32,000 bases of DNA from Coprobacillaceae bacterium (GTDB taxonomy: Bacteria; Bacillota_I; Bacilli_A; Erysipelotrichales; Coprobacillaceae): NCBI GenBank assembly GCA_963675915.1, contig OY780959.1, positions 180,001 through 212,000 on the forward strand, in the 5' to 3' direction. Below, one piece after another: positions 1,870 to 18,865 of this stretch (within the stretch, counting starts at the first letter, position 1; each line of letters begins with the position of its first letter). The translations under genes and the position numbers were made by a program. The notes under the pieces are model-generated. The model saw only the letters and a program-made list of their open reading frames with translations. It did no database searches and had not been told where the DNA came from.

Positions 1870-2275
1870 GCTTTCAGTGTCCAAGATTAAAACAGCTCTC
1901 ACTGTGCTTTAAAACATGCAGTATATAGTGGTTTTCTTGCATAAAACATCAAAGGGGTCATATAGTACCTGGATTGTTTTAAAAATATTATTTTGGCCTA
2001 TATACGGGGGTTTTTAGGAAGGGACGGCAGATTGGTGGATGGCAATGTCTTCAATCAGGATTATAATGGGAAAGTCGATTTAGTGAACGCAAACTGGCGA
2101 GATTCATGCCAATAAAGGGGGCAATATGGCCGGGTTTAAGTCCAATCTTGTACTTGTTTTTTCTTTTACATTCGAGTCGGAAGTGATACAATGGTTGTAT
2201 ACGTTTTATTAACAGTTGAGTCAAATCAACAAGATGATGGTATTGGATGGGCACATCATTAAGGGGGATATAATA

Positions 2276-5272
2276 ATGGTTAAATATACCGGGGAACAAG
2301 AGATTGAGAACCAAATGATCCAGCAGCTTACCCGCGGTGAAAGCCAATGGACTTACCGTGAAGATTTGAATACTGAAGCACTCCTGTGGGAGAACTTCTT
2401 TGAAAAGTTGGAACAAAACAATGTGAAGACTCTGGATGGTAACCCGTTAACCGAGCAGGAAAAAAATCAGATCAAGAACCAGTTGAACTTCGTCAATTAC
2501 TACGAGGCGGCCAAATGGATAGCTGGTGAGAATGGGATTGCAAAAGTTCAAGTCCAACGTGAAGATGCAACTCTAGGAACCATCAGGCTGGAAGTATTAT
2601 GGCGTGATAATGTGGCTGGTGGAAAATCCAGCTATGAAGTAGTCAATCAGGTTAAGATAGAAAAGACAAAGCTAGATGATTTGAACCGGCGCTTTGATGT
2701 GACCTTGCTAATCAACGGGTTGCCTATGATCCATATCGAACTGAAAAATCGTTCAACTGGCTATATGGATGCATTCTATCAAATCAAGAAATACGACAAG
2801 GAAGGTAAGTTCAGAGGGATATATTCAACACTGCAAATGTTCGTGGTATCAAACGCGACCGAGACAAGGTACATCGCTGCTGCGAAAGATAATAAGATCA
2901 ACGATCAGTTCCTGACAAAATGGGTGGACGTGGATAATCACCCAGTTGTTGATTTGGCCAGCTTCACTTCTCAGGTTTTATCAATCCCTCGCGCTCATCA
3001 GATGGTCATGCAGTATTCAGTGATTGATGACAGCAAAAAGGCTCTGATATTACTTAGACCTTACCAAGTCCATGCCATAGAGAAAGTTAAGGAAGCGAGT
3101 AAGCAGCGCAAAAGCGGGTATGTCTGGCATACTACTGGATCTGGGAAAACGTTGACCAGTTACAAGGTTGCAAGGAACCTACTTCAAATTCCATCAATCC
3201 AGAAGACTATTTTTGTGGTCGACAGGACCGATCTGGATCAACAAACAACTTCTAGCTTCTTGTCTTACGCCGAAAATGATGTAATTGACATCGATGAGAC
3301 CGAGAGCACTCACAATCTCGTAAAACAGCTGTATTCTGATGAAAAAACTGTGGTAGTTACCACGATTCAGAAGATCAACACGATGATGAAAAAATTCGAT
3401 GAGGGCAAATATAAAAAAGAAAATAAAAAAATAAAAGAATTAAACGTAGCTTTTGTAGTAGATGAATGCCATCGAGCAGTAACACCAGGCAGACAACGGT
3501 TAATCTCTAAATTCTTCATCAACGCACTCTGGTATGGATTTACTGGTACGCCTATATTTGCGGAAAATAAGCGGGAACAAGTGGGTGATTTGGCCCAAAC
3601 AACGGAAGAACAATACGGTGAACGTTTGCATCAGTATACTGTCAAAGAAGCCATTCATGATAAAGCGGTCTTAGGCTTCCAGGTTGAATACAAGAACACA
3701 GTCATTAGTAAACTACCTGAATCAGAGATCCTTTCAGAAGTATATGATAAGGAAGAACATATGCGAGAGGTATTGGATTCAATAATTAACCACTCTCGTC
3801 GCAAGTTAGGTTTCCAAAATGGTGTTGGGAAGACATATACAGCGATTTTAACTGTCAAAAGCATCTCGATGGCCCAGAAGTATTATGATTTGCTTAACCG
3901 CGTAAAAAGCGGCGAATATAGCCTGAAAGTGAGCGAGCAGGTCAAACAGACCTTGCCTGACTTCCCTAAGTTTGCAATCACTTATTCTGTGTCGGAGAAC
4001 GAGGAAGACAGCACGACAAATCAGGACAAGATGAAAGAATCCATCAAAGACTACAACAATATGTTTGGAACTCATTTCACGATCGCTGACATCCGTTCGT
4101 ACAATAATGACATCAATGAGCGACTGGCAAGAAAGAAAGATCGGTATACATTCCGAGACGAGCAGCTTGATCTAGTTATTGTGGTCAATAGGCTGCTAAC
4201 TGGTTTTGATGCCCCTTGTTTGTCAACACTGTTTATCGACCGCCTACCAATGAAACCACAGGATTTGATCCAGGCATTTAGTCGAACAAACCGGCTCTTC
4301 GACCGGTCTAAAAAATATGGACAAATTGTAATATTTCAAAAATATGAAACATTTAAGAGCGCAGTTGATAATGCACTGAGACTATACTCTAACGGTGGTG
4401 AAAACTTTGTGTTAGCACCTACCTGGCAAGAGGAGAAGCGAAACTTTGATCAAAAAGTGAAAGAATTCAAGATGATTGCTCCAACACCAGAAGATGCTCC
4501 GGATGTTGTATCGGGAACTGATGAGGAACTGAAGTATTTTGCCAAAGCATACCAGGAGTTCGACAAGCTATTTGCTTCAATTCAAGTATATTCTAATTAT
4601 GATCGTAGTAAAGTTTTGCGGGAAGCAGGACTTACAATCGGAATGATTGAGGAGTTCGCCGGTAAGTATGAAAATATCATGGATGAGTTGAAACGGAGAA
4701 AAGGTGATGATGATGATCCCGATATAGTTCCCATTGACATTCTGTATGAGCTTGAAAGTGTGAGAACAGATGAAATCAACTACGAGTATATCTTATCACT
4801 GATTCAAGCGTTCATCCCTGAAGTTGAAGGGGAATCAAAAGAGCTGTCAGACAAAGACGTCAAAGCAATCAGTACATATATCGGTGAACTTCGAAAGACC
4901 AATCCGGGATTGGCTGGAATTATCGATAATCTGTGGATCCAAGTTCAAATGGATCCAGATAGATACCGTGGGCAATCTGTTGCAAATATCTTGGACGAAA
5001 TGATTGAAGAGACGATTAGCAAGAAGGTACTAGAGATATCGTCGAAGTGGTTTGTGGGATACGAAGAGCTGATGTTCCTAGTTAGAAACTATCGTAAGGG
5101 TGAGTCAAAGCAGCTCGGTGAACAGGAACTTAATCAATCAAGGGATTACAATGCCTACAAGGAGCAATCCGGAGATGCTGCGTTGTCAAAGCTAAAATAC
5201 ATGAAAGAGATAAAGCCGGCATATACTCAAGCGATTGAAGAAGTAATTGTTCCGTTGCAACGAAGAAGATAG
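2276..5272 (+). CDS. hsdR: Type I restriction enzyme R subunit (HsdR), about 998 aa
   Basis: N-terminal PD-(D/E)XK core [20 protein letters not shown]. Helicase motif I TTGSGKT and motif II DECHR. Start placed at ATG 2276 behind AAGGGGGA rather than at the ORF-track TTG 2216. Confidence 0.9.
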
Positions 5273-5281
5273 GAGTATTAA

Positions 5282-6529
5282 ATGATTGAAATAACAAAAA
5301 AACAACCAAAAGTAAGGTTCAAAGATTTCGCAGGCAAAAATGCTGAAGATTGGGAACAGCGTAAGTATGGTGATCTAGCACAAGTGCGTAGGGGGTTAAC
5401 GTATAAACCGTCGGACGTTCAAGAAAATGGAGTTAAAGTGCTCAGATCTTCTAATATTGATGCGGATATTTTTGTCCAGAGGGAAGATGATGTTTACGTT
5501 CAAGGGGGAGCGGTTAATATCGATTTTTTATGTGATGGAGATATCTTGATCACAGCAGCAAATGGATCTTCGCGTTTGGTTGGTAAACACGCAATTATTA
5601 ACGGAATATCTGATAGATCAACTGTACACGGCGGATTTATGTTGGCTGCTACAACAGATAATCCTGAATTTTTAAATGCCTCAATGAGCTCAAGGTGGTA
5701 TTCTAAGTTTATCAATATGTATGTTGCTGGTGGGAATGGGGCAATTGGCAATCTCAATAAAAATGATTTAGAAAATTATAAAATTCTTGTTCCCAATATA
5801 CATGAACAAGAGAAGATTGGCGATTTTTTCAAGAACTTAGATAACCTTATCACTCTTCATCAGCGTGAGTTGGATAATAAGAAGACTTTGAAACAGACGA
5901 TGCTGTCAAAAATGTTTCCGAAGGATGGATCAGATGTTCCGGAGGTTAGATTTGCTGGATTTGCTGACCCTTGGGAACAGCGTAAGTTAGCTGAAGAAGT
6001 AGAATTTTTTAATGGATTAACTTATTCTCCTGCTGATGTTAGTGAAAATGGAACTTTTGTTTTACGGTCTTCGAATGTAAAAGAAGGAGAAATAGTTAAC
6101 GCAGATAATGTATACGTAGACCCTCAAGTTGTTAATTCTTCCAATGTCGAGGAGGGGGACATAATTGTTGTAGTAAGGAATGGATCTCGAGCACTAATTG
6201 GAAAACACACACAAATTAAGGAAAGAATGGATGATACAGTGATTGGTGCGTTTATGACCGGTATACGTTCGGACCAACCTGGATTTGTAAATGCATTGTT
6301 GGATACTGAACAATTCAATCGAGAAATTCATAAAAATTTGGGTGCTACTATAAATCAAATTACCAATGGGATGTTTGCAAAGATGAATTTTATGTTCCCT
6401 AATTTTGAAGAACAGCAGAAAATCGGAGTATTTTTCACTAATCTGGATAACCTAGTCGCTCTTCATCAGCATGAGTTGGAAACGTACCAAACATTAAAGA
6501 AAACAATGCTGGAAAAGATGTTCGTGTAA
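5282..6529 (+). CDS. hsdS: Type I R-M specificity subunit (HsdS) with two target-recognition domains
   Basis: Internally duplicated architecture. Repeated WEQRK entry segments, plus conserved helices LITLHQRELDNKKTLKQTMLSKMFP and LVALHQHELETYQTLKKTMLEKMFV. Confidence 0.9.
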   Translation: MIEITKKQPKVRFKDFAGKNAEDWEQRKYGDLAQVRRGLTYKPSDVQENGVKVLRSSNIDADIFVQREDDVYVQGGAVNIDFLCDGDILITAANGSSRLVGKHAIINGISDRSTVHGGFMLAATTDNPEFLNASMSSRWYSKFINMYVAGGNGAIGNLNKNDLENYKILVPNIHEQEKIGDFFKNLDNLITLHQRELDNKKTLKQTMLSKMFPKDGSDVPEVRFAGFADPWEQRKLAEEVEFFNGLTYSPADVSENGTFVLRSSNVKEGEIVNADNVYVDPQVVNSSNVEEGDIIVVVRNGSRALIGKHTQIKERMDDTVIGAFMTGIRSDQPGFVNALLDTEQFNREIHKNLGATINQITNGMFAKMNFMFPNFEEQQKIGVFFTNLDNLVALHQHELETYQTLKKTMLEKMFV

Positions 6530-6571: not shown

Positions 6572-8179
6572 ATGACAGATACAAGTAAACAAAATTCACA
6601 AACTTTATACCAAGCACTTTGGAATAGTGCGGATATCTTGCGTTCAAAAATGGATGCCAACGAATACAAATCGTATCTTCTAGGGTTGGTCTTCTACAAG
6701 TACCTTTCCGACAAGATGCTTTTTTACGTTGCTGAGATCATGGAAGAAGGAACTGACAACCTTCAAACAGCACAGAAGCTATATGAGGAGTCTTTCAAAG
6801 ATGAGGAAACACGAGAGGATTTGATTTCGGTTCTACAGGAAGAAATTTCATATTCTATCGATCCACATCTGACATTTACTGCATTAGTAAATCAAGCAAA
6901 TATCGGATTTTTCCAATTGGAGTCATTAGCGCAAGGGTTTAGGAATATCGAGCAGGCTAACGAAACCTTTGAAAACTTATTCGAAGATATCGACCTTTAT
7001 TCAAAGAAATTAGGGCCAACACCGCAAAAGCAAAATGCAACGATTGCTGCAATTATGAAAGAATTGTCAGCATTGGATGTTGCAGCTCATGCTGGGGATA
7101 TGCTTGGAGATGCCTATGAATACCTCATTGGTCAATTTGCCAGTGATTCAGGGAAGAAGGCTGGCGAGTTCTATACGCCTCAGCCAGTAGCGAAACTGAT
7201 GACACAAATTGTGATTAATGGACGTGAAAACAAAAAAGGATTAACGGTATACGATGCGGCCATGGGATCAGGATCACTGCTTCTGAATGCTAAGAAGTAC
7301 AGTAATGAACCAGGAACGATTTCATATTATGGTCAGGAGCTAAATACTTCAACATACAACTTGGCTCGGATGAACATGATCCTTCATGGTGTCGCTGTTG
7401 AGAACCAGTTCTTGCATAATGCAGATACACTTGATCAAGACTGGCCTACTCAAGAACCAACAGACTTTGATGCAGTATTGATGAATCCGCCATACTCGGC
7501 GAAATGGTCAGCTGACAAAGGTTTTTTGCAGGATCCACGATTCTCAAGCTATGGAGCATTAGCGCCTAAATCAAAAGCGGACTTTGCGTTCCTGTTGCAT
7601 GGATTCTATCACTTGAAGCAAAATGGTGGAGTGATGGCAATCGTACTCCCTCATGGAGTATTATTCCGAGGCAATGCAGAAGGTCGTATACGTAAGCACC
7701 TGCTTGAAGAAGGAGCGATCGATACCGTAATTGGAATGCCAGCAAATATCTTCTTCAATACGAGTATTCCAACTACTGTAATCATCCTGAAGAAGAACCG
7801 TACGAACCGGAATGTACTGTTCATCGATGCATCACAGGAGTTTGACAAGGGTAAAAATCAGAACACGATGACTGATGAGCATATCGGCAAGATCCTGGAT
7901 GCTTATAATAAACGTGAGGATGCCGATAAGTTTGCGCATGTGGCGAGCTTTGAAGAGATCAAAGAAAACGACTTCAACTTGAACATACCACGTTACGTTG
8001 ATACTTTCGAGGAAGAACCGGTTGTTCCATTAACTGAAATTGTTGGAAATATCAAATCGACACGCGAAGAGATCGAAAGAACAACAGCAGAGATTTATAG
8101 CATGTTGGAAGACTTGGTTGGGACAACGTCTGAAGAGGATAATCAATTGAAGGATTTTTTAAGGCAATTAAATATTTAG
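6572..8179 (+). CDS. hsdM: Type I R-M N6-adenine DNA methyltransferase subunit (HsdM)
   Basis: AdoMet motif DAAMGSGSLL and catalytic NPPY (LMNPPYSAKW). The N-terminal HsdM_N-like region opens with LWNSADILR. Confidence 0.92.
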   Translation: MTDTSKQNSQTLYQALWNSADILRSKMDANEYKSYLLGLVFYKYLSDKMLFYVAEIMEEGTDNLQTAQKLYEESFKDEETREDLISVLQEEISYSIDPHLTFTALVNQANIGFFQLESLAQGFRNIEQANETFENLFEDIDLYSKKLGPTPQKQNATIAAIMKELSALDVAAHAGDMLGDAYEYLIGQFASDSGKKAGEFYTPQPVAKLMTQIVINGRENKKGLTVYDAAMGSGSLLLNAKKYSNEPGTISYYGQELNTSTYNLARMNMILHGVAVENQFLHNADTLDQDWPTQEPTDFDAVLMNPPYSAKWSADKGFLQDPRFSSYGALAPKSKADFAFLLHGFYHLKQNGGVMAIVLPHGVLFRGNAEGRIRKHLLEEGAIDTVIGMPANIFFNTSIPTTVIILKKNRTNRNVLFIDASQEFDKGKNQNTMTDEHIGKILDAYNKREDADKFAHVASFEEIKENDFNLNIPRYVDTFEEEPVVPLTEIVGNIKSTREEIERTTAEIYSMLEDLVGTTSEEDNQLKDFLRQLNI

Positions 8180-8255
8180 AATATTATGACAAGAAATACT
8201 TATTTATACAGGTACAAATACGAGGTTTATTTGCTCAATGTCTGGGGAGGACAAT

Positions 8256-8795
8256 ATGAAAATTGATTTTAAAGGGATGGATAAAAACGAAGTTATTTTG
8301 TTGATTGACTATATTGAAAACTTCAATATTCACTATGACTTGTTGTTAAGACGGTATGAACGCTTTAAGGAAATTAACTATTTAGGTAATTCGGATATTG
8401 ATGTTATCACTTATTTTGATATGGTTGTTGTGCAACTTAGGGCAATGTGTATTGAAAGCGAATGGTATAAAAAAAATTACACTGCACAAATATTGCTACG
8501 AAAAATTGGAGAAGGTGAACTAGCTGAAAAATTAGATAGTGTCTTGGATGAAGAGTTTTTTCAATGGACTTCAGGATTTACAATTCGAAAGGGATTGAAG
8601 GAGCTTGCAGATCAATTTATTTGTCACTATGATAATTTTGACGGAAAGAATAAAGATGGCTGGGCAATGGCTTCGATTATTGAAAAAGAGTTAAAGAACC
8701 CTTATGCTGGAAAAAATTTGGACTATATTATGAACAAAATTGTCGAGTGTATCGGTACAGGATTAAGTTTGGAGCATTTTTCGATTGAGGAATAG
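8256..8795 (+). CDS. Hypothetical protein (179 aa), co-oriented behind hsdM; candidate partner of the downstream RES-like protein
   Basis: GGGGAGGA RBS before ATG 8256 (the ORF-track start 8238 is less likely). No HTH or other motif recognised. Confidence 0.6.
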   Translation: MKIDFKGMDKNEVILLIDYIENFNIHYDLLLRRYERFKEINYLGNSDIDVITYFDMVVVQLRAMCIESEWYKKNYTAQILLRKIGEGELAEKLDSVLDEEFFQWTSGFTIRKGLKELADQFICHYDNFDGKNKDGWAMASIIEKELKNPYAGKNLDYIMNKIVECIGTGLSLEHFSIEE

Positions 8796-8902
8796 GGTGT
8801 TTTCATAATTGTTATCTAATGATTAATTCAAGTTTTAGCACTCCGTAATAAGTTTAAATTTTACGAAATATTTAACTGGGTTAAAGAAAGAAGGAAAAAC
8901 GT

Positions 8903-9877
8903 ATGGGAAAGAATAAATATCGGAACAAACCTTGCCCCTGTGGAAGTGGAAAAAAATACAAGAATTGTTGTATGACAAGAGAACGTGAGGATGAGCCAGG
9001 TAGGGTGGAAAATAGTAAAAAAATCTTTGATTTTGGGGATTTAGAAAAAAGTGAGGAAATTATTAGAAAAACGTGGGATGAATTTAGAGAGGCTTTGTCA
9101 AAAGAAATTTTCAATTACGATGAAGTTGAAAAAGCCAAGGAGCAAACTTTCTTACGAGTATATGATGATTTGTTTAATAAACACCTTGGGATTGAACTTC
9201 AGACGAAAACAGTGTCAGAGATTCGCCATACTAAAATAGGACGTGGTACAATCCTTGAACCTGGAGAAACACCTGACTTTGAGCGATTTATTCCTAAAGA
9301 GGAATATATTAAAGAGGATAATCGTTTCAGCCCGCCAGGTGTCGAATGGTTGTATATGGCACTTGGAAATGAAGATGAGCTGCTAGACTGCGCACAATGC
9401 GAGTGTCGAGTTGCAAAAGGTGATAGATTTGGTTTTTGTCATTTTAATTACAGTAATACATATGACGACTGTAAGCTTGTGGATTTGACAATATCAGATG
9501 AGCTTTCATTTGGTGAATTAAACCAGCAATTAGAAGAATATGGTCAAGAAGTAATGAGGAAAATTAAAAATGAGGCACTGACTACAGGAAAAATCAATGA
9601 CGTAAATAGGGATGAATTCGAAGCCACATTTACAAAATGGGGGGTATATACTTATACTAAATTACTGTCTGATCAAATTTTTATTCCGCTTGATTCAACT
9701 GATAACAAAAAAAATAAGTATGCTCCTTTTCAAACTATGGCGCATTACTTTATATCTCTAGGATATTCAGGGATTATTTACGGAAGTACAGTTTGTCCAA
9801 TTGGAAAAAATATTGTTCTATTTGACAAAAAAATGGCAAAACCATATGGAAATATTGATGAAGTAATAATTGACTAG
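8903..9877 (+). CDS. SEC-C zinc-motif N-terminus fused to a RES-domain-like C-terminal half (324 aa)
   Basis: KPCPCGSGKKYKNCC lies near the N-terminus. RES-like landmark segments are NRFSPPGVEWLYMA, LLDCAQCE and GIIYGSTVCPIGKNIVLFD. Confidence 0.65.
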   Translation: MGKNKYRNKPCPCGSGKKYKNCCMTREREDEPGRVENSKKIFDFGDLEKSEEIIRKTWDEFREALSKEIFNYDEVEKAKEQTFLRVYDDLFNKHLGIELQTKTVSEIRHTKIGRGTILEPGETPDFERFIPKEEYIKEDNRFSPPGVEWLYMALGNEDELLDCAQCECRVAKGDRFGFCHFNYSNTYDDCKLVDLTISDELSFGELNQQLEEYGQEVMRKIKNEALTTGKINDVNRDEFEATFTKWGVYTYTKLLSDQIFIPLDSTDNKKNKYAPFQTMAHYFISLGYSGIIYGSTVCPIGKNIVLFDKKMAKPYGNIDEVIID

Positions 9878-10025
9878 TTGTAGAAATTCTTATGTTACCG
9901 GTATGTCTTCTAATTATAATACCGTCATCTTTTATGGTTGGCTTAAAAATTTTGGGTACCGTTGACATGTCGGGAAATTGGTTTTTTCAGTTTGTGTTAG
10001 AGTTGGAATAAATAATTTAATCAGG

Positions 10026-10050
10026 GAGCGGAAAAACCGCTTCTTTTCTT
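10026..10050 (+). terminator. Intrinsic terminator closing the hsdRSM-orf179-RES block
   Basis: Stem GAGCGG/CCGCTT (outermost pair G-U) with an AAAAA loop, followed by the T-rich run TTCTTTTCTT. The IS66 element is inserted immediately downstream. Confidence 0.6.
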
Positions 10051-10152
10051 TATCTGTAAGCGTCAAATAGAAGGCACCTACAAATGAAAAGAGCCCCAGT
10101 GTATAATGGGCTCAGTTGGATATTTACGTTGATGCACTAAAAGATCATATTT

Positions 10153-11724
10153 CTATGATTTTTTAGTGATATACAGTTCTTTTGGCAGTTTTGCCCACGG
10201 CATTACTGTTTCCAATGATTTTTCATCAGTTATATCCAGATCCGGCAAACGGTCTAGGATATACTGGAAATAATCATATGGTTTGAGATTGTTCATTTTG
10301 GCTGACTCAACCAAGCTGTAAATGTAGGAACTGCTATTGGCACCTTTAACTGTATTCATAAACAGCCAATTCTTGCGGCCGACAGTGAACGGTCTGATGA
10401 TGTTTTCAGCTGCATTGTTGCTGATATCTATTCTCCCATCACTAATATATGTTCTCAACTTTGATTCTTGATTGTAAGCATAGTTGATTGCTTCGCCTAA
10501 ATGAGATTTAGGTAGAGCAACCTTTTTAAGTTCATGGATTTTTTTGAAGAATTCATTCACTTTCTTCAATGACTTTTCCTGCCGAATTTTGGTCAGTTTG
10601 TCATAATCGCAATCTTTGTGCTTTCTCTCTATGGCGAACAGCTCGTTGATCATTGCGAAACATTTATATGTCTCGGTAGACTCAAGATTGACATTTTTAG
10701 GAACCAGATCCAAAGCTTCTTTGAATTTCCTTCTAGCATGAGCCCAACAACCTGCCTGAGTTACACCTTCGACTTTGTCATATGCCTGGTAACCGTCTGA
10801 TATCAAAACTCCTTTGAAATCTTCAAGGTAATTAACGGCGTGCTTATGGGCGCGGCTTGGCTCGTAGTTAAACAGTACGTATTGATTGGCTTCGCTTCTG
10901 CCAGTCATATAGACCCACATGTATGATTTCGATGATGCCGCTTTACCTGGTTCATGTAGCACTTGGACGCTGGTCTCATCGGCATTGATATACTGGGCCT
11001 TCATCAGCTGTTTATACATGTAGTCAATCAATGGTTTGAAGTAGTTATTTGATACCCTGATCAGCCAGTTTGACATGTTCTGACGATTCAGATTGATCCT
11101 CATTCTTTGATAGGAAACTTCCTGACGGTATAACGGCAACGATTTGACATACTTGTCATTGATGATATTTGCCACCAGTGAAGCTGAAGCAATGCTACCG
11201 CTGATCAATGGCGTTGGTCCATTAGCTTTGATAATGGTTGCTTCGATGTCGTTCTTCTCGCAATTGCGGCAGCTGTAGATGTGTTCGACATGATTAATCA
11301 CTTCCACTTTGGCAGGAACGAAAATAAGTTCTTTGCGAACTTTTTTCGACATCTCATGCAATTCATGATTGCATTTAGGACAAACCTTTTCATCAGCACT
11401 CAAAACATAATCAATCGTAGTGTTCTTCAAGGAATCCAAATCCATAATTCTTGATTTCTTTTTGCGCTTATGAGATTTTACTTCGGTGATATTTGATTCA
11501 TCATTGATCGGTGTTGATTCAAATTCAATCTCATCAAACAAAGACAACTGATCAACATGAACTTTTTCAGACGATTGACCAAACAATTTCTTCTGCTGCA
11601 GTCTGACCTGTTCCTTGTACCAGCTGTTCTCTTGAGATAATTGTTCTACTTTTGTATGTAAAGCCATGTAGGATTTTTCTAATTCCTCACGTGACATTTT
11701 CTTGATATTAACGGTATTTTTCAT
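10153..11724 (-). CDS. tnpC: IS66-family transposase (TnpC/orf3)
   Basis: N-terminal coiled coil. Zinc-finger-like CPKCNHELHEM...CRNCE. The LPLYRQ motif and a DDE-type core typical of IS66 transposases. Confidence 0.9.
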   Translation of the reverse strand: MKNTVNIKKMSREELEKSYMALHTKVEQLSQENSWYKEQVRLQQKKLFGQSSEKVHVDQLSLFDEIEFESTPINDESNITEVKSHKRKKKSRIMDLDSLKNTTIDYVLSADEKVCPKCNHELHEMSKKVRKELIFVPAKVEVINHVEHIYSCRNCEKNDIEATIIKANGPTPLISGSIASASLVANIINDKYVKSLPLYRQEVSYQRMRINLNRQNMSNWLIRVSNNYFKPLIDYMYKQLMKAQYINADETSVQVLHEPGKAASSKSYMWVYMTGRSEANQYVLFNYEPSRAHKHAVNYLEDFKGVLISDGYQAYDKVEGVTQAGCWAHARRKFKEALDLVPKNVNLESTETYKCFAMINELFAIERKHKDCDYDKLTKIRQEKSLKKVNEFFKKIHELKKVALPKSHLGEAINYAYNQESKLRTYISDGRIDISNNAAENIIRPFTVGRKNWLFMNTVKGANSSSYIYSLVESAKMNNLKPYDYFQYILDRLPDLDITDEKSLETVMPWAKLPKELYITKKS

Positions 11725-11756
11725 ATCTAGATTATACCAAAAAATCGGCCAAGTTA

Positions 11757-12116
11757 CTAGATAATAAGCCGATTTTCCATGTTTTTAAATGCATATTTTT
11801 GATCGATTTCAAGGCCCTCGAGCAACCAGCGAAACTGTCTTTCATCAATGACTCTGGTGTTTGAATTCTCATCTTCACGAACCTTGAACTTTCCGCTTTC
11901 AAGCCGTTTGAGAAACAGCCAAAACCCACCATTTTCGTAATAAAGAATCTTCATCCTGTTGCGAGCCCGGTTGACAAAAATGAACAAGCTGCCGTTCATC
12001 ACATCCAAATCAAACTCCATGGCCACTATCAAAGACAAACCATCGATTGACTTGCGCATGTCGACATGTCCAGTGGCAAGATAAATATGTTTGACATCAT
12101 CAGTGTTGATAATCAT
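11757..12116 (-). CDS. tnpB: IS66 Orf2 (TnpB) accessory protein
   Basis: The DMRKSIDGLS motif is typical of IS66 orf2. ATGA overlap with orf1. Confidence 0.85.
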   Translation of the reverse strand: MIINTDDVKHIYLATGHVDMRKSIDGLSLIVAMEFDLDVMNGSLFIFVNRARNRMKILYYENGGFWLFLKRLESGKFKVREDENSNTRVIDERQFRWLLEGLEIDQKYAFKNMENRLII

Positions 12117-12406
12117 TTGATAGCCCCAATCACTTTACAAAGCAGAGACTCATCAAATGTCAGTTCCACATCGTTGACAGTGATTGTAATCTTCCTGGTG
12201 GGATTGTCAATCAATACCGGGGCGAAGAAACGGCCATCAGACTTAACCGGTTGGCTGAGTTCATCAGTATCAATGATCTTACGCCATTTATAAAACGAAT
12301 TCTTGTTGATCCCATTTTCCATGCACCAACGGCTAATGGATTTCCCGGAAATCCGCCAATTTTTAACTAGACCATTCCAATAATCATAACGCTCTTGAGC
12401 ATTCAT
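12113..12406 (-). CDS. tnpA: IS66 Orf1 (TnpA) HTH accessory protein
   Basis: Position and size fit the IS66 triad. HTH-like ISRWCMENGINKNSFYKW. GGAGG RBS. Confidence 0.75.
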   Translation of the reverse strand: MNAQERYDYWNGLVKNWRISGKSISRWCMENGINKNSFYKWRKIIDTDELSQPVKSDGRFFAPVLIDNPTRKITITVNDVELTFDESLLCKVIGAIK

Positions 12407-12668
12407 AAAAAGTACCTCCTGTTATAACTTACAACGAAATTATAACCCGAGGCACTAAATTTTAAAACGTGTCATCTATTTGACGCTTACCTTTATCTAT
12501 TGTGTATATCGATTTAAATGAAAACATATGTTTTTGTTTATACTTTGTACGGCGCTAAAAATGAAGCGAAACCAGTTGATTTGCAGTTAATTATATAAAA
12601 GAAACCGTGGACACCTTTTCGTTTATAGTGTATCATGTTTATACGGTAAGACGAAGGAGGAACCTGAA

Positions 12669-13259
12669 ATGATATATGGTTATGCGAGATGTTCAACTGA
12701 CGAGACAAAACAAGATATTAATCGCCAGAAAAGGGAACTGAAATCACATGGAGCTACTGACGTCACTATTTATTTTGAGTATCAGAGTGGTACCAATTCA
12801 AATCGTCCTGAGTTTAATAAGTTACTGGATGTGGTCCAGGGAGGTGACACGATCGTGTCAACTGAAGTCAGTCGGATAACTCGAAGCACAAAGCAATTAT
12901 GTGAGATCATTGAGGTTGCAAAAGAAAAGAAGTTGAAACTTGTCTTGGGAAGTTTCGTGGTCGACTGTACGAAAGAACTTGACCCAATGACAGAAGGGAT
13001 GCTTAAAATGATGGGAGTCTTTAGTGAACTTGAACGAAACATGATAAGCCAACGAGTTAAGAGTGGTATGGCTAATGCAATGGCTAAGGGAAAGGTGATT
13101 GGTAGGCCAGCAACTACTGCCGATGATATTCCTGCTATTTTTTACAAGCATTATCCTAAATACAAGAATGGTGAGATAAACAAAGCTGAATTTTCAAGGC
13201 TGTGCGGATTGTCGTATCCGACAATTTATAAGTATTTGAATATTGTAGAAAGCTTATAG
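12669..13259 (+). CDS. Small serine recombinase (resolvase/invertase family, 196 aa)
   Basis: N-terminal catalytic motif IYGYARCSTDETKQD, followed by GDTIVSTEVSRITRS. C-terminal HTH (FSRLCGLSYPTIYKYL). AGGAGG RBS. Confidence 0.88.
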   Translation: MIYGYARCSTDETKQDINRQKRELKSHGATDVTIYFEYQSGTNSNRPEFNKLLDVVQGGDTIVSTEVSRITRSTKQLCEIIEVAKEKKLKLVLGSFVVDCTKELDPMTEGMLKMMGVFSELERNMISQRVKSGMANAMAKGKVIGRPATTADDIPAIFYKHYPKYKNGEINKAEFSRLCGLSYPTIYKYLNIVESL

Positions 13260-13405: not shown

Positions 13406-13984
13406 ATGAAAAAATCAAAAGGCATCGTATGGCTTATTGCGTTTGTTGTGATACTATCATCAATAACAACGGTAGCTGCAAAAAATGATAAAAATGATGG
13501 ATTTACTTTAGGTGAATTTACATCAATGTACTATGAGGTTTTGAGTCAAGAGGTAGTAGATGGTACAGCTATTCCTTGTTTTCCTCCGGAAGAGTTTGAT
13601 TGGATAGTGGTTAATAATAATGTATTGGATCCTGACACTTTCGGAATTTTTGAGTTTAATATGCCTGTTCATGTTGAAAGTTTTACCGCAAACATTAGTA
13701 ACAACGATTTTTCGGAAGTTGCACAATCAACAGGATTAGCGCCAAACTGGCTTAAAAGTTATTTAAAATACAGGATTGATTTTACTATTTCAGGTAGTGC
13801 GGATGCTTCATACGCAGGATATAGTTTTGAGTTGGGATGCGTTACCACCTATGGTAATGGCGGTTCGATAGCTGTCACAATTAATCCCGATGGAACATTT
13901 GCAGGTGAAAGCTACTTGATGACAAATTGTTCTGTAAATGAGCTTATATTCACTTCTGCGTCTCTTGATGCGCCTCTACCATAA
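13406..13984 (+). CDS. Hypothetical secreted protein (192 aa)
   Basis: AAGGAGTAAG RBS. Signal-peptide-like N-terminus MKKSKGIVWLIAFVVILSSITTVAA. No other motif recognised. Confidence 0.6.
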   Translation: MKKSKGIVWLIAFVVILSSITTVAAKNDKNDGFTLGEFTSMYYEVLSQEVVDGTAIPCFPPEEFDWIVVNNNVLDPDTFGIFEFNMPVHVESFTANISNNDFSEVAQSTGLAPNWLKSYLKYRIDFTISGSADASYAGYSFELGCVTTYGNGGSIAVTINPDGTFAGESYLMTNCSVNELIFTSASLDAPLP

Positions 13985-14101
13985 TAATGTCTATCAAAGG
14001 TTAAAGTGTTTATGGTCTGGCTAGCTATTTTATCTGATGAAATTTATATTCATCCTGTATTTAATAAAGGTCAATTAAAGATGATTTGCTGAAATGCATT
14101 A

Positions 14102-14136
14102 GGGACTCCATGATAAGATGGGGTCCTTTATTTTTG
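14102..14136 (+). terminator. Intrinsic terminator
   Basis: 9-bp stem GGACTCCAT/ATGGGGTCC (one G-U pair) followed by TTTATTTTT. Confidence 0.6.
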
Positions 14137-14329
14137 TGAATAAACTAAGCTGTTCTCCCTGAAAAAATTTTGATATTAGCCTTATCAAGCATTTTAGTAA
14201 TTTTATGATTGGTTGATAATTCGATCAAGACAACCGCATTGTTACATTACTAATGTATATTAACACTTTGTTGTGATATAATTTACATAGTGAGTATAAC
14301 TTTAATTTGTTCTAGGAGGGGGAAGAAAA

Positions 14330-15136
14330 ATGAAATTCAAATCAATTAACGGAAGTATTGGTATTGTTGTGTGCTCGTTATTATTATCAGGATGTTCAAG
14401 CGAGGAACCTTTGGGAGAAAATGAGTTAAGAATTGCCGATGCGTCAAAGAGCTATGAGGGTGAGGATTATGAGGATGTTGTTGCGAGATTAGAAGATAAT
14501 GGGTTTTATAATATCGAAACGGAGACGATAGAGGATTTAATAACCGGCTGGCTAACAAAAGATGGAGAGGTAGAATCGATCTCAGTTGGTGGTGAAATGG
14601 AATTTGATGATGGGGATATCTTCACAAAGGATGCTACCGTAATAATCACTTATCATACATTTAAAGACAGTGGTTCAAATGAAGCTGGAGATTCAATCGA
14701 AAATGAATCGTCATCTAATGATGCTATAAATTTTGATGGATACACTTTGATTGAGGTTAATGGTGGGGATTTGTCAGGTGATAGAAAGCCGAACGCTGTT
14801 GTTGACGTAGGATTTGGAGAACGTGAATACTGGGCTTTTACAAATGAATATGGTCAACTGGTAAAAGTGATCGCAGATGAAATTATCTTGCAGGATGACT
14901 CATCTGAGCCTGTGAACAGTGATGGGAGGTACTATGATGATGAAGCGAAGGTACCCGGTACTGAAAGCCCTGATTTAGATGAGGGTCATGTCATTGCGGA
15001 TAGTCTTGGTGGTGTATCCAATGCTTATAATATTACTCCTCAGGATAGTACTCTTAATCGGTACGGTGATCAAGCTTATATGGAAAAGGTAATTCGTGAT
15101 GCAGGGGGACGTTTTTATGGCATCGGTAACTGGTAG
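14330..15136 (+). CDS. Lipoprotein with a C-terminal beta-beta-alpha-Me (DNA/RNA non-specific, EndoNS_2-like) nuclease domain; the C-terminus may be truncated
   Basis: Lipobox LLLSGC. Nuclease motif DEGHVIADSLGG...NITPQDSTLNRYG..AYME. Only about 10 aa follow the last conserved block before the stop. Confidence 0.65.
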   Translation: MKFKSINGSIGIVVCSLLLSGCSSEEPLGENELRIADASKSYEGEDYEDVVARLEDNGFYNIETETIEDLITGWLTKDGEVESISVGGEMEFDDGDIFTKDATVIITYHTFKDSGSNEAGDSIENESSSNDAINFDGYTLIEVNGGDLSGDRKPNAVVDVGFGEREYWAFTNEYGQLVKVIADEIILQDDSSEPVNSDGRYYDDEAKVPGTESPDLDEGHVIADSLGGVSNAYNITPQDSTLNRYGDQAYMEKVIRDAGGRFYGIGNW

Positions 15137-15953
15137 GATAAAACAAATCAAGCAACCTAGGGGAGGGTTCGTTAAACCATCTGAGTTTAAAGTTGTAATT
15201 GAAAAAGACAATGGTGAATTGAATCCGAAAGAAAATATTCATGGTACTATAGTGGGTATGGCTGTTGATTATCTCACAAGGTTTTCAATGGGAACTGATA
15301 TACTTGAATCATTTAAAATATCAATTCGCGGCGCTGCCATCGCAGAGCAACTTGGAGTTGAAGGATCTGTGAATATTGCAGCTAACCTTGTGGATGGTAT
15401 AAACGGTCTTGATGAAGAGTCTATCATTAATGCCTGTAAACTTGTAGCATTCGACGTATGGCTCAGAAATCCTTTGGGAGCCATGATGGCAAAAGACTAC
15501 AAATCAATAAATCCAGATGAAGCAACGGTGCAAAATATCCATACTCTTGTTATCCGCAGTATTGATTTTTTTCAAAAATATGGCCCGATAACAAAAGATG
15601 GATTTACCTTTGAACCACCTGGATCAGATATAGAAGATTTTGCAAAAATAATGAAATCAAATGAAGGTGTTTTGGGCGGATACACTTCTACTGTAGAATC
15701 AGGTGATGGAGATTTTCTGACCTCAGATACCCTTTGGGATTTTAAAGTATCTAAGTCAAAGCCAACAAATAAGCACACGTTACAATTATTGATGTATTGG
15801 ATAATGGGCCAGCACTCTGGTCAGGAAGCATTTCGTGGTATTACAAAGTTGGGAATATTCAATCCGCGCCTAAATACGGTTTACTTGCTGGATATGGCAG
15901 ATGTATCTCAAGAAATAATTGAAGCTGTAGAGGATGAAGTAATATGTTATTAA
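15117..15953 (+). CDS. PD-(D/E)XK (RecB/Cas4-like) nuclease-fold protein, 278 aa
   Basis: AGGGGGA RBS before ATG 15117. The motif series GDGDF, LWDFKVSK and QLLMYW matches the D / (D/E)xK / QxxxY pattern. Overlaps the upstream ORF by 20 nt. Confidence 0.6.
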   Translation: MASVTGRIKQIKQPRGGFVKPSEFKVVIEKDNGELNPKENIHGTIVGMAVDYLTRFSMGTDILESFKISIRGAAIAEQLGVEGSVNIAANLVDGINGLDEESIINACKLVAFDVWLRNPLGAMMAKDYKSINPDEATVQNIHTLVIRSIDFFQKYGPITKDGFTFEPPGSDIEDFAKIMKSNEGVLGGYTSTVESGDGDFLTSDTLWDFKVSKSKPTNKHTLQLLMYWIMGQHSGQEAFRGITKLGIFNPRLNTVYLLDMADVSQEIIEAVEDEVICY

Positions 15954-15996
15954 TGTATCTAATGATAGTAGTTAGTACAGAAGAGGGGAATAAATA

Positions 15997-16923
15997 ATGC
16001 CAAAGTTAGGAAAAATTGAAAAGGTAGATGATTTGCGTACAATTTGGAAGCGTGAAGCACTCGATTTTACAAAGTGGTTAGCAAGGGAAGAAAATCTTGA
16101 AATATTGAGTGATTCGATTGGAATTGAGATTGTTCTTGAGGAGACCGAGTCATCCGTTGGAAACTTTAATGTTGACTTGTATGCTACTGAAGAGGGGACA
16201 GGAAGGAATATCATAATCGAGAATCAGCTCGAAGACACTGATCACGACCATTTGGGTAAGCTTATCACTTATGCTTCTGGTAAAGGTGCTGAAGTTGTTG
16301 TTTGGATAGTAAAAAGAGCAAGAGATGAGCATAAGCAAGCAATTGAATGGCTTAATCAACATACGGATGAGAATGTAGGATTTTTTCTTCTTGAAATTCA
16401 GTTATGGAAGATAGATGAATCACTACCAGCTCCAAGATTTAACGTTGTTGAGAGACCAAATGATTGGGCAAAAACAATGAAAGCTGTCAGTGGGTTATCT
16501 GATACTAAGAAATTACATTTGGAGTATTGGGATGCTTTTAATGAGTATGCTTTCAACAAGCCTGAGTTTAAACGCGTGTTTTCAAAACGTAAGCCTCAAC
16601 CGCAAAATTGGTATGATTTGAGTGTTGGGAGTTCTTCTTACAGAATTGCAATTTCGGCAAGTACACAAAAGAAGCGACTGGGTGCTGAGATATACATAAA
16701 TGATGATAAGGAATTGTACGAAAAATTCAAAAATTCCAAAGCGTCTATTGAAGCGGAACTCGGATTGGAACTTCAATGGATCGAGGCTTCAAAAGATTGT
16801 CGTATTTTTGCAGCGATTAAAGGTGATATCAAGAGTGGAAATTCTAAGTGGAATGATTACTTTGATTGGTACTGCGACATGGCGTTAAAACTCAAGGATA
16901 TCATTCGAAAGTATGATGCTTGA
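15997..16923 (+). CDS. Nuclease-fold N-terminal domain plus a DUF4268-like C-terminal domain, 308 aa
   Basis: The segment VDLYA...IIIENQLEDTDHDHLGKLITYA is a signature remembered from DUF4268-family proteins. GAGGGGA RBS. Confidence 0.55.
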   Translation: MPKLGKIEKVDDLRTIWKREALDFTKWLAREENLEILSDSIGIEIVLEETESSVGNFNVDLYATEEGTGRNIIIENQLEDTDHDHLGKLITYASGKGAEVVVWIVKRARDEHKQAIEWLNQHTDENVGFFLLEIQLWKIDESLPAPRFNVVERPNDWAKTMKAVSGLSDTKKLHLEYWDAFNEYAFNKPEFKRVFSKRKPQPQNWYDLSVGSSSYRIAISASTQKKRLGAEIYINDDKELYEKFKNSKASIEAELGLELQWIEASKDCRIFAAIKGDIKSGNSKWNDYFDWYCDMALKLKDIIRKYDA

Positions 16924-17003
16924 CGATATATACCAGTGTTGTTTTACCTGAGTAATATTGAAAGAAAATGTTAGTGAATTTGTTGAGAAGGAGTAATATC
17001 GTA

Positions 17004-17657
17004 ATGATGATTCATCCACAAATGTATTATGATAATAATTTGAAAGGTAACAATGAAAAGGAGTTGATGACTGCTATTCGCGGATTGAAACAGAGAATAG
17101 GCCGTCTAAAAAACAGTATCGAGAATCCGGATCTGATTAGGGTTTATATGCAACCAAGGGCTTCGCTACAGATAAAGCTCATGCGCGAATACCTTGAGAT
17201 GGCGAAGCGAGCGTATCGTGAAGCTGGTGGTGTTTATACTCCCTCTAAGGCTGAACTGAAAGTCATTGATTTCGATGGTAATATTTCAGAAATTGCGAAG
17301 ATAACCTTTTCTATTGGCGGATACTTTAACGGCTACGAGACATACGTCATTGATTTCGGTGAGACGGAGGTTCACATTGAAAAACGGCATAGCTTGAAAG
17401 ATCCAGAATTATCCACTGAGAATGATCGGATTTTTGATAAACAATCGTTTACTGAGGGGTTAAGAGATCTGCACATTGGCGAATGGAGAAGAGGGTATTC
17501 GACCGAACGTTTCGGATATAGGGTGCTCGATGGTACGCAATGGGAACTGGAGTTTGAATACCAAATTGGGCATAAGCATTTTCGATTTTCAGGGAGCAAC
17601 TCGTATCCGTATAATTTTGATGAATTTCAAGTGTTGTTTGGCATCGAATTTCTATAG
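17004..17657 (+). CDS. Hypothetical protein (217 aa), last gene of the nuclease cluster
   Basis: GAAGGAG RBS before ATGATG at 17004. No recognisable motif. Confidence 0.5.
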   Translation: MMIHPQMYYDNNLKGNNEKELMTAIRGLKQRIGRLKNSIENPDLIRVYMQPRASLQIKLMREYLEMAKRAYREAGGVYTPSKAELKVIDFDGNISEIAKITFSIGGYFNGYETYVIDFGETEVHIEKRHSLKDPELSTENDRIFDKQSFTEGLRDLHIGEWRRGYSTERFGYRVLDGTQWELEFEYQIGHKHFRFSGSNSYPYNFDEFQVLFGIEFL

Positions 17658-17710
17658 TAAATTTTGATGGGATTAAATGAAATTAGTGAGAAAGGAATTG
17701 GAAAATTACT

Positions 17711-18865
17711 ATGAAATCTTTAGTTTTTAGAACGGTATTGATCTTTGTTTTAGCTTTTTGTATTGTTGGATGCTCATCGGAATCGGAAAGTGATCAAGGC
17801 ACCGGTAATTCGGATAGTGAAGAGGAAATAGATGTTGAAGGAGTAAGTATTTATCGAGTTGAAGAGGTTGAGGAGGATCCTCCGGTCAAAAGCACTACAA
17901 TGGCAACTGGTGAATTTGAATCGCTACTTTCAAAACTTCCATTGACTGTCGATTCAACAACTTACCACGTTCAAGATGATAGATATAAAGCGCTGTATCC
18001 TGATATGTTGCAAGCTGTAATAAAAAATAATTCGTCACTTGACATAAAAAATGCTATAGTAGCATTTGTCGCGTGGGATGAAAATAATCTTCCCGTGAAA
18101 ATTGTTGGCTCGATAGATTTTTCTGATGGTGCATACGTTAGAAAGGTTAATTATTCTGATATAAACTTAGTTCCAGGTGATACCTATGGGGAAAACTCAG
18201 GATTTGAAATCGATGAAAGTTGCGGAATAAAGTCATTTAAAGCCATTGTTGTCTCGTATGAAGCATTTAATGGAGAAGAATGGAATAATCCGTATTATGA
18301 TGAATGGCTTGATCTTTATGAGGGAGCGAAATATGCGGAAGATCTTTCTGTTGAGGTAATAATTGAGGATGAATTGGTAGATGATAAAGTAGTTGAAAAT
18401 CAATCTCCAACGGTGGATGTGGAATTATCTGAGCAAAATCTTATTTCAATAATTGATTCACAAGAGGTTAAAATTATTTCAACAACTTACCACGTTCAAG
18501 ATGATAGATATAAAGCGCTGTATCCTGATATGTTGCAAGCTGTAATAAAAAATAATTCGTCACTTGACATAAAAAATGCTATAGTAGCATTTGTCGCGTG
18601 GGATGAAAATAATCTTCCTGTGAAAATTGTTGGCTCGATAGATTTTTCTGATGGTGCATACGTTAGAAAGGTTAATTATTCTGATATAAACTTAGTTCCA
18701 GGTGATACCTATGGGGAAAACTCAGGATTTGAAATCGATGAAAGTTGCGGAATAAAGTCATTTAAAGCCATTGTTGTCTCGTATGAAGCATTTAATGGAG
18801 AAGAATGGAATAATCCGTATTATGATGAATGGCTTGATCTTTATGAGGGAGCGAAGTTGCTTTAG
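17711..18865 (+). CDS. Lipoprotein with two near-identical ~126-aa modules
   Basis: Lipobox CIVGC. An acidic linker follows. The protein sequence TTYHVQDDRYKALYPDM...YEGAK is present twice. Confidence 0.7.
   Translation: MKSLVFRTVLIFVLAFCIVGCSSESESDQGTGNSDSEEEIDVEGVSIYRVEEVEEDPPVKSTTMATGEFESLLSKLPLTVDSTTYHVQDDRYKALYPDMLQAVIKNNSSLDIKNAIVAFVAWDENNLPVKIVGSIDFSDGAYVRKVNYSDINLVPGDTYGENSGFEIDESCGIKSFKAIVVSYEAFNGEEWNNPYYDEWLDLYEGAKYAEDLSVEVIIEDELVDDKVVENQSPTVDVELSEQNLISIIDSQEVKIISTTYHVQDDRYKALYPDMLQAVIKNNSSLDIKNAIVAFVAWDENNLPVKIVGSIDFSDGAYVRKVNYSDINLVPGDTYGENSGFEIDESCGIKSFKAIVVSYEAFNGEEWNNPYYDEWLDLYEGAKLL
17953..18330 (+). repeat. Copy 1 of a 378-bp intragenic direct repeat
   Basis: Aligned by eye with 18478-18855. 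The only difference is C at 18094 against T at 18619. Confidence 0.95.
18478..18855 (+). repeat. Copy 2 of the 378-bp intragenic direct repeat (525-bp period)
   Basis: See copy 1. A 147-bp unique spacer (18331-18477) separates the copies. Confidence 0.95.

Follow-up and report, generated by a model that had tools for sequence, protein, structure and literature searches.

Does a gene for a RES-domain toxin candidate that lies at the end of a restriction–modification operon act together with the small gene in front of it, or have the two only come to stand side by side? This question is raised by a 32,000-nt stretch of DNA from a Coprobacillaceae bacterium (contig OY780959.1 of assembly GCA_963675915.1, forward-strand positions 180,001 to 212,000), which is here called the window and to whose positions all coordinates refer unless a locus label (L and a number) is given. 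As an initial annotation of the sequence had it, two co-oriented open reading frames (ORFs) follow the hsdM stop codon at 8179, on the same strand as the hsdR, hsdS and hsdM genes of a type I restriction–modification (R-M) system. The first, orf179, encodes a 179-residue protein; the second, orf324, encodes a 324-residue protein that opens with a SEC-C motif and carries a RES domain. In that annotation orf179 took the place of the antitoxin, as the partner of orf324. The comparative analysis described here leads us towards a different reading, which we consider rather probable from the sequences compared, namely that two autonomous defence-island cassettes are stacked on the 3' end of the R-M operon and do not make up a toxin/partner module.

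The strongest evidence for this comes from a survey of 97 loci with a homologue of either gene, all of which were screened by tblastn; the RES loci were drawn from 20 genome contigs and from exact-protein look-ups, and the orf179 loci from 56 metagenome contigs and look-ups. Both genes were present in only one of the 97. This locus, L022, is 95.5% identical to window positions 7846-9962 at the nucleotide level, so that it is this block itself, met in a second sample. In 54 orf179 loci the sequence runs on for at least 1.2 kb downstream without a RES gene, and in 26 RES loci at least 0.8 kb upstream is free of orf179. Conservation of the pair was thus not borne out across the survey, an outcome that the initial annotation had itself named as speaking against its proposal. 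The placing of orf179 in the antitoxin position is likewise not supported, since the pair is missing from the other 96 loci. Furthermore, orf179 cannot be an obligate neutraliser, because RES proteins about 60% identical to orf324 occur with no upstream partner. A dedicated toxin/neutraliser pair, in which orf179 would replace the Xre antitoxin in a non-canonical RES toxin–antitoxin (TA) or abortive-infection (Abi) module, therefore strikes us as very unlikely. The two genes are indeed adjacent, co-oriented and 107 nt apart with no terminator between them, the block is kept as a unit in L022, and the canonical antitoxin is absent. Nevertheless, besides the absence of the pair from 96 loci, the RES homologues at about 60% identity share the domain layout of orf324 and have either no partner or unrelated ones, and orf179 homologues that are 65% identical lie in BREX systems or after NACHT genes with no RES gene nearby.

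What kind of protein, then, is orf324? At the domain level it can be accepted, on sequence grounds, as a RES member with a SEC-C motif. The RES domain proposed for it was recovered by Pfam (PF08808, 29.8 bits against a cut-off of 23.2, E 7e-7), and RES was matched in all 25 aligned homologues, with a best E of 1e-8. The Pfam alignment of orf324 spans aa 266-310 only, which is the 'Ser' segment among the three segments (Arg, Glu and Ser) that had been assigned to the RES domain by eye; the Arg and Glu segments lie beyond it. Their key residues (R141 in DNRFSPPG, E148 and E167) are nonetheless invariant in the 25-sequence alignment, as are S295/T296 in GSTV and, among others, Y151, R169 and R175, so that the three segments do represent the conserved core of the family. 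As R141 and E167 fall outside the Pfam-aligned stretch, they are putative catalytic positions by motif resemblance. A large protein search returned 297 relatives of orf324, which come from genomes of gut Clostridia. Nearly all are 289 aa long and about 60% identical to orf324, and NCBI has given several of them the name 'RES family NAD+ phosphorylase'.

In the AlphaFold2 (AF2) model of orf324 (pLDDT 80), aa 1-38 are disordered and residues 47-107 form a helical region; beyond it come a beta core and an insertion of two helices (203-258). Within the helical region, helices are placed at 47-66, 82-92 and 96-107, with pLDDT mostly 85-95 from about residue 50. When this model was compared with the PDB by Foldseek, the top six matches were all RES toxins, namely NatT (probability 0.97, E 0.02), P. 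putida Xre-RES and ParT, with E-values and TM-scores that are weak; an ART-like fold, as in the solved RES toxins, is a candidate for orf324. No sequence-only link to the solved RES toxins was obtained with the family profile and the C-terminal fragment against the PDB sequences.

The N-terminal part of orf324 had been described as one extra SEC-C region of about 150 aa. It does not hold together as a unit and is better divided into two separate parts, a SEC-C extension and a helical region. The SEC-C motif itself is secure (PF02810, aa 7-24, E 2.4e-9, 37.3 bits against a cut-off of 20.4). The extension, of about 37 aa, occurs only in orf324 and its 97%-identical twin in L022; none of the other 24 aligned homologues has SEC-C, and they can be aligned with orf324 only from about its residue 40 onwards. 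The twin protein (P0001) was called from M24 and so omits SEC-C, whereas the L022 DNA encodes the whole N-terminus. From this distribution, the SEC-C knuckle appears to be a recent, lineage-specific addition to orf324. The helical region (about aa 40-107) is found across the family and matched no Pfam family in any of the 25 members at E up to 1; for want of such a match, an identity of the HEPN/RES-NTD1 type was rejected.

To our knowledge, RES toxins are known only from Xre-RES toxin–antitoxin pairs. The usual helix-turn-helix (HTH) antitoxin is absent here, as the initial annotation had noticed, and it was found neither in the window nor beside any relative examined. There was no HTH or DUF2384 gene adjacent to the RES homologue in the Pfam-annotated loci L001-L006, L021, L022 and L103-L107; at the other RES loci, clustering and representative Pfam scans gave rlmD, Mrr-like or DUF4145 neighbours and no HTH antitoxin; and orf179 itself had no HTH or DUF2384 match in Pfam. 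Like the toxins of the Xre-RES modules (P. putida RES-Xre, MbcTA, ParST and NatRT), orf324 has a RES domain above the Pfam cut-off, finds its best structural matches in NatT, P. putida RES and ParT, and has, invariant in its family, R, E and S residues at the putative signature positions. RES toxins are NAD+ phosphorylases, and by analogy the same NAD+ chemistry would be expected of orf324 (PMC11535050). Unlike them, it has no Xre/DUF2384 antitoxin in the window or in related loci, it has roughly double the length of the minimal toxins (144-160 residues in the matched PDB chains), and it possesses the N-terminal helical region, the two-helix insertion and the SEC-C knuckle. Since both an antitoxin neighbour and a conserved gene pair are lacking, orf324 is placed outside the Xre-RES TA class; its family is a divergent RES family of gut Firmicutes without an Xre/DUF2384 antitoxin.

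Two other known architectures bear comparison with orf324. A combination of Zn-ribbon, HEPN/RES-NTD1 and RES was described by Anantharaman et al. 2013 (PMC3710099), which has in common with orf324 an N-terminal zinc module, a mostly helical region of about 100 aa, the RES domain and conflict or defence neighbourhoods. It differs in that the helical region of orf324 has no Pfam match in 25 members and that SEC-C is confined to one lineage. The other is Rugutis, a verified single-gene antiphage protein of the abortive type from lactococci, which is activated by the phage large terminase (PMC11381338, PMC12184496). This protein of 359 aa is likewise a single polypeptide of similar size with an N-terminal SEC-C, which makes it a parallel in architecture; its authors found SEC-C only and no structural match, whereas orf324 matches RES directly. 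A tblastn search of orf324 against PLSDB gave no match to a Lactococcus plasmid.

The neighbours of the orf324 relatives differ from lineage to lineage. In L021 the RES gene lies directly 3' of gajA-gajB (Gabija). At 16 loci it stands at the border of an integrative element, beside the 3' end of rlmD or a serine recombinase gene, and no partner precedes it. Seven further loci have it behind a 240-aa Mrr_cat protein, with differing genes further upstream; at six loci it follows a 319-aa DUF4145/HEPN protein. The last two arrangements bring in another explanation, a modular two-gene system in which a RES effector would be joined to an interchangeable upstream partner, either an infection sensor or a co-effector, with an Mrr-like nuclease, a DUF4145/HEPN protein or orf179 in that role. 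Such a model would partly rescue the earlier idea of a partner, because the principle of pairing would be kept even if the partner family is not. It is suggested by the recurrence of Mrr_cat and RES with differing upstream genes, by that of DUF4145 and RES behind either Gabija or a DpnII-type R-M system, by gaps of about 24-36 nt between genes on one strand, and by the match of the Mrr-like protein to the NACHT-associated iREase1, given that orf179 relatives follow NACHT genes. On the other hand, the 16 loci have RES and no such upstream gene, the RES gene of L021 comes directly after gajB, and no domain shared by orf179, the Mrr-like protein and the DUF4145 protein, or by any of them with orf324, could be detected. 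The partners are, moreover, 87-100% identical within a cassette, so that each may represent a single recent lineage and its adjacency a historical accident. We regard the modular system as unlikely.

Several details of these neighbourhoods may be recorded here. The Mrr_cat and RES genes occur together in L023, L025, L026, L027, L031, L040 and L042, where the partner ends about 35 nt before the RES start; the 240-aa protein has N-terminal Cys clusters in addition to its iREase1 match, and in L079-L081 a 45%-identical copy of it precedes the orf179 homologues by 3.5 kb. The DUF4145/HEPN gene and the 289-aa RES gene form a tight cassette with a 24-nt gap (L024, 365-2217; L103-L107, 5018-6870), which follows Gabija in some contigs and a DpnII-type R-M system with DUF3644 in another; the 319-aa protein carries the motif RAIRNDCMHYDDNF. 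In the lineage that adjoins rlmD or a serine recombinase, two to four same-strand copies of GGATTAGATGT are present within about 220 nt upstream of RES (L001, 7915-7985; about 160 to 36 nt before the RES start in L030, L032 and L034), the last of which abuts the ribosome-binding site. These repeats, which could be operator repeats or remnants of recombinase sites, are absent from the window, from L022 and from the Mrr-, DUF4145- and Gabija-linked lineages. In L001-L006 (9016-9924; C. scindens and related contigs) the gene next after the solo RES gene is a conserved one of 302 aa, which had no Pfam match, and a serine recombinase gene comes behind it; L030 and L035 have a different, 431-aa membrane-anchored protein in place of the 302-aa gene product.

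The second gene, orf179, was rightly described as encoding a protein with no placeable motif: it had no match in Pfam, NCBIfam or PADLOC and a weak one to a single PHROG family of unknown function. Its AF2 model is confident (pLDDT 87, pTM 0.83) and consists of seven helices, for which Foldseek gave no match in PDB or BFVD (best E >1). The family is small, with 161 representative clusters at E <=1e-3 among 1.84 billion proteins, and a large protein search with a broad orf179 alignment returned close relatives only, with no annotation. Among the 61 members that were aligned, H124 never varies, and R62, E67, T76, K115, D119 and D126 are at least 90% conserved; this set of polar residues suggests a catalytic or ligand-binding site.

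The only family signal to recur among the relatives of orf179 was HEPN_AbiU2 (PF18734), a HEPN family reported in R-M operons. It was below threshold in 4 of the 61 members (best E 0.0018; one listed match had 13 bits against a cut-off of 26.8). The all-helical structure, the similar size and the genomic context of orf179 are in keeping with it. However, orf179 itself had no Pfam match, additional Pfam scans of distant members gave nothing more, and the family has no conserved Rx4-6H, with R62-x4-E67 and D119-x4-H124 instead. Comparison by hhalign with the DUF4145 neighbour and with a SEC-C/RNxxxH protein returned nothing, and no match to HEPN structures in the PDB pointed to the HEPN four-helix fold. 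A HEPN identity thus stays a weak lead. An augmin match, the only one given by the orf179 profile against PDB sequences, was put down to chance. Two of the 61 members, both distant relatives, weakly match the PADLOC candidate PDC-S07 (E 1.4e-4), which PADLOC did not find in orf179 itself. The orf179 domain also occurs in rare fusions (P0242, P0351/P0373 and P0331), at the C-terminus of a glycosyltransferase-28-like protein, with a NUDIX-like N-terminus (sub-threshold) and with BspA-type leucine-rich repeats.

Relatives of orf179, 55-67% identical to it in the contexts found, occupy a striking range of positions. Some lie between pglX and pglZ of complete type 1 BREX systems that include a GmrSD-like gene, with gaps of 6-14 nt; another context is 6 nt after a NACHT gene; a third is a type I R-M locus that also holds an integrase gene and spare hsdS genes (an hsdS shufflon). 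Others were found on a Firmicute conjugative element, behind genes for a 2486-aa methylase-helicase and a DUF6664 protein, among the GNAT genes that a MobA-type mobilizable element carries as cargo, and after a Peptidase_M78 gene in an HTH-rich region. In addition, a 211-aa backbone protein of IncX1 plasmids belongs to the orf179 family (hhalign probability 98.6, E 1.3e-15). This gene is present on at least 24 enterobacterial conjugative plasmids; in the Salmonella plasmid pSE34 (L099, 4875-5510; WP_012477164.1, 'hypothetical protein') it lies between the par genes and ddp1/rep. In L089 (3180-4529), 3' of a truncated orf179 homologue, there is a gene for a 449-aa protein with N-terminal Cys clusters, a HEPN-like motif RNAIGH (Rx4H) and a C-terminal SEC-C (Pfam E 1.6e-10), which is another SEC-C-tagged conflict-type protein in orf179 neighbourhoods.

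Both families recur in defence operons of several system types, either within the operon or as its last gene and on the strand of the operon, which is the mark of an embedded accessory gene. The orf179 family does so in BREX (pglX-pglZ), NACHT and type I R-M settings, whereas RES-family genes come after Gabija, Mrr/DUF262, DUF4145 and type I R-M genes. Most of the genes that lie embedded in BREX, DISARM and type I R-M systems are defence genes (Payne et al. 2024, bioRxiv 10.1101/2024.01.29.577857), backup effectors have been found inside BREX loci (PMC12839542), and HEPN and other toxins are present in R-M operons, with PrrC as the precedent (PMC3710099). The orf179 relatives resemble such genes, among them PrrC-EcoprrI, in lying on the same strand within BREX and type I R-M loci with very short gaps, and the two PDC-S07 matches recall the PADLOC PDC families; they differ in that orf179 has no PADLOC match, no ABC ATPase and no recognisable nuclease domain.

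The same contexts can be read in another way, with orf179 as a regulator, or as a counter-defence or maintenance factor of mobile elements, for example a modulator of methyltransferase systems. Relatives in the IncX1 backbone beside par and rep genes, on the Firmicute conjugative element behind the giant methylase-helicase and on the MobA-type element would fit such a role, as would the one in the HTH-rich region after the Peptidase_M78 gene and the fact that an orf179-family gene follows an N6-methyltransferase gene in three contexts. We nevertheless hold it to be distinctly improbable. The tight same-strand embedding between pglX and pglZ and the position 6 nt after a NACHT gene are typical of a defence accessory, no homologue was found in viral contigs, orf179 has no DNA-binding motif, and its two distant relatives match the defence candidate PDC-S07.

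The structure of the locus itself agrees with joint expression of all five genes. The type I R-M system is complete, with HsdR, HsdS and HsdM each matched by Pfam. A GGAGG sequence 6 nt ahead of the ATG at 8256 makes this start of orf179 likelier than the one at 8238; an AAGGA Shine-Dalgarno site precedes the ATG of orf324 at 8903, and a longer orf324 is ruled out by an in-frame TAA at 8882. The initial annotation had seen no terminator between hsdM and the hairpin at the end of the block, and a consensus scan of the plus strand agrees, with none from 8179 to 10023-10045. Neither of the two intergenic gaps (76 nt and 107 nt) folds better than shuffled sequence, and the spacer between orf179 and orf324 has a folding z-score of +1.4 against shuffles. 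With gaps free of terminators and stable folds, the sequence is compatible with one transcription block from hsdR to orf324, as had been proposed, and transcription in this form is what we infer. On these features orf179 and orf324 are probably co-transcribed with the R-M operon, and the hairpin likely marks the end of the transcript. The features are collected in Table 1.

Table 1. Features of the R-M operon, its two passenger genes and the adjoining mobile element (window positions)
Feature	Position	Strand	Basis or remark
Promoter-like site 5' of hsdR	2165-2192	+	TTTACA, 16-nt spacer, TACAAT, TG extension
hsdR, EcoR124-like restriction subunit	2216..5272	+	Pfam HSDR_N, SWI2_SNF2/ResIII, T1R_D3-like, EcoR124_C
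hsdS, specificity subunit	5282..6529	+	Pfam Methylase_S, two stretches
hsdM, N6-adenine methyltransferase subunit	6572..8179	+	Pfam N6_Mtase E 3.9e-110, HsdM_N
orf179, all-alpha protein, uncharacterised family	8256..8795	+	AF2 model, homologue contexts
orf179-orf324 spacer, 107 nt	8796..8902	+	No terminator-like site or stable structure
orf324, SEC-C, helical N-terminal region and RES	8903..9877	+	Pfam, AF2, fold matches
SEC-C zinc-knuckle motif, aa 7-24	8921..8974	+	PF02810
Family-wide N-terminal helical region, about aa 40-107	9020..9223	+	Conserved in 25 homologues
RES catalytic core (putative), about aa 108-324, with two-helix insertion aa 203-258	9224..9874	+	Invariant residues, Pfam RES, AF2
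RES core motifs			NRFSPPGVEWLY contains R141; AQCECR contains E167; GIIYGSTV contains S295
Intrinsic-terminator-like hairpin, U-rich tail	10023..10045	+	9-bp stem, dG -12.2 kcal/mol, z -2.7 against shuffles
IS66-family element (tnpA, tnpB, tnpC)	10056..12490	-	Pfam DDE_Tnp_IS66, TnpB_IS66
Resolvase gene	12669-13259		Past the IS66 element

On the reading that we prefer, that of two stacked autonomous cassettes, the block would have arisen by accretion, with two unrelated and independently mobile passenger genes joining the 3' end of the type I R-M operon, where they would be expressed by read-through from the R-M promoter with termination at the hairpin. The orf324 protein would be a self-contained, antitoxin-free effector of the RES NAD+ phosphorylase type. 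As judged from the RES family, it would act on NAD+, either by phosphorolysis to ADPR-1''-phosphate and nicotinamide or by ADP-ribosylation of a target, and would arrest growth or work as an abortive effector; that orf324 on its own depletes NAD+ or brings about abortive infection is a reasonable inference by analogy. Because there is no family-wide partner, its restraint would be expected to act in cis or through control of expression, and not through orf179; the N-terminal helical region, the two-helix insertion and expression control are the candidates. In NatT, inserted 'Flap' elements can govern the control of the RES domain (PMC11535050). The SEC-C knuckle may tether orf324 to nucleic acid, to the ribosome or to another protein. 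The genes of the orf179 family, which encodes helical proteins of about 170 aa, have entered immune operons or follow them in the same orientation, 0-15 nt from their neighbours. In our reading orf179 would be an accessory embedded in this way, and would work as a backup effector or as a sensor on occasions when the host system is challenged, as PrrC does in type Ic R-M.

A bolder form of this proposal would make both genes new single-gene immune modules, which we consider rather unlikely. The orf324 family would then be the first antitoxin-free RES NAD+-phosphorylase anti-phage effectors, controlled in cis by their helical N-terminal region and insertion, with SEC-C added for targeting or sensing. 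The orf179 family would be a new helical fold whose active site is formed by R/E/K/D/H/D, and which BREX, NACHT and type I R-M operons have taken up as a portable effector in reserve or as a sensor.

Several observations weigh against two independent cassettes. Many of the loci are copies of a few elements, so that the independent contexts are fewer than the locus counts. The adjacency and apparent co-transcription of orf179 and orf324 are seen in exactly the lineage that gained SEC-C, and a lineage-specific functional link between the two is possible. Two other RES lineages have a different small gene 24-36 nt upstream, and these small genes could mean that RES works with interchangeable partners. 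Plasmids and conjugative elements, on which anti-defence genes are frequent, also carry relatives of orf179. Finally, for the assignment of orf324, the fold-search scores are weak (E 0.02-0.8, TM 0.25-0.5) and its Pfam RES match extends over no more than 45 residues.

That the block belongs to a mobile defence island, as initially suggested, is borne out by its surroundings, in which the type I R-M system is followed by an IS66-family element and then by a resolvase gene. The IS66 element was inserted a few bases past the operon terminator; it has terminal inverted repeats (GTAAGCGTCAAATAG) and an intact 8-bp target duplication (CTTTATCT) at both ends. Past the resolvase comes a run of plus-strand genes (13406-18865), among whose products are a 192-aa protein that is probably secreted, one of 268 aa with an Endonuclea_NS_2 domain in its C-terminal part, and a DUF5780 protein; this may be a cargo region of the toxin/immunity type. 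The similarity of L022 to the window stops at 9962, that is, before the IS66 element; 3' of its RES gene there are two small ORFs and an AIPR (abortive-infection) gene on the opposite strand. As for a phage origin, orf324 had no match in INPHARED and one partial match in IMG/VR, and orf179 had none in the IMG/VR viral contigs.

The attractive claim of a novel toxin–partner pair is thus not supported, and what the locus offers is known kinds in varied form and not a new category. No RES toxin had been tied to immunity as of 2024 (PMC11535050), while comparative genomics predicts a role for RES in immunity (PMC9503650). An antitoxin-free RES family behind Gabija, Mrr, HEPN and type I R-M genes gives an entry point to the question of how a solo NAD+ toxin is silenced and triggered. 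The orf179 family, small and unannotated, with a confident model that has no known structural match, is a candidate for the embedded-gene route to new defence or counter-defence functions. The locus also carries a warning, that adjacency in a defence island need not mean a functional pair.

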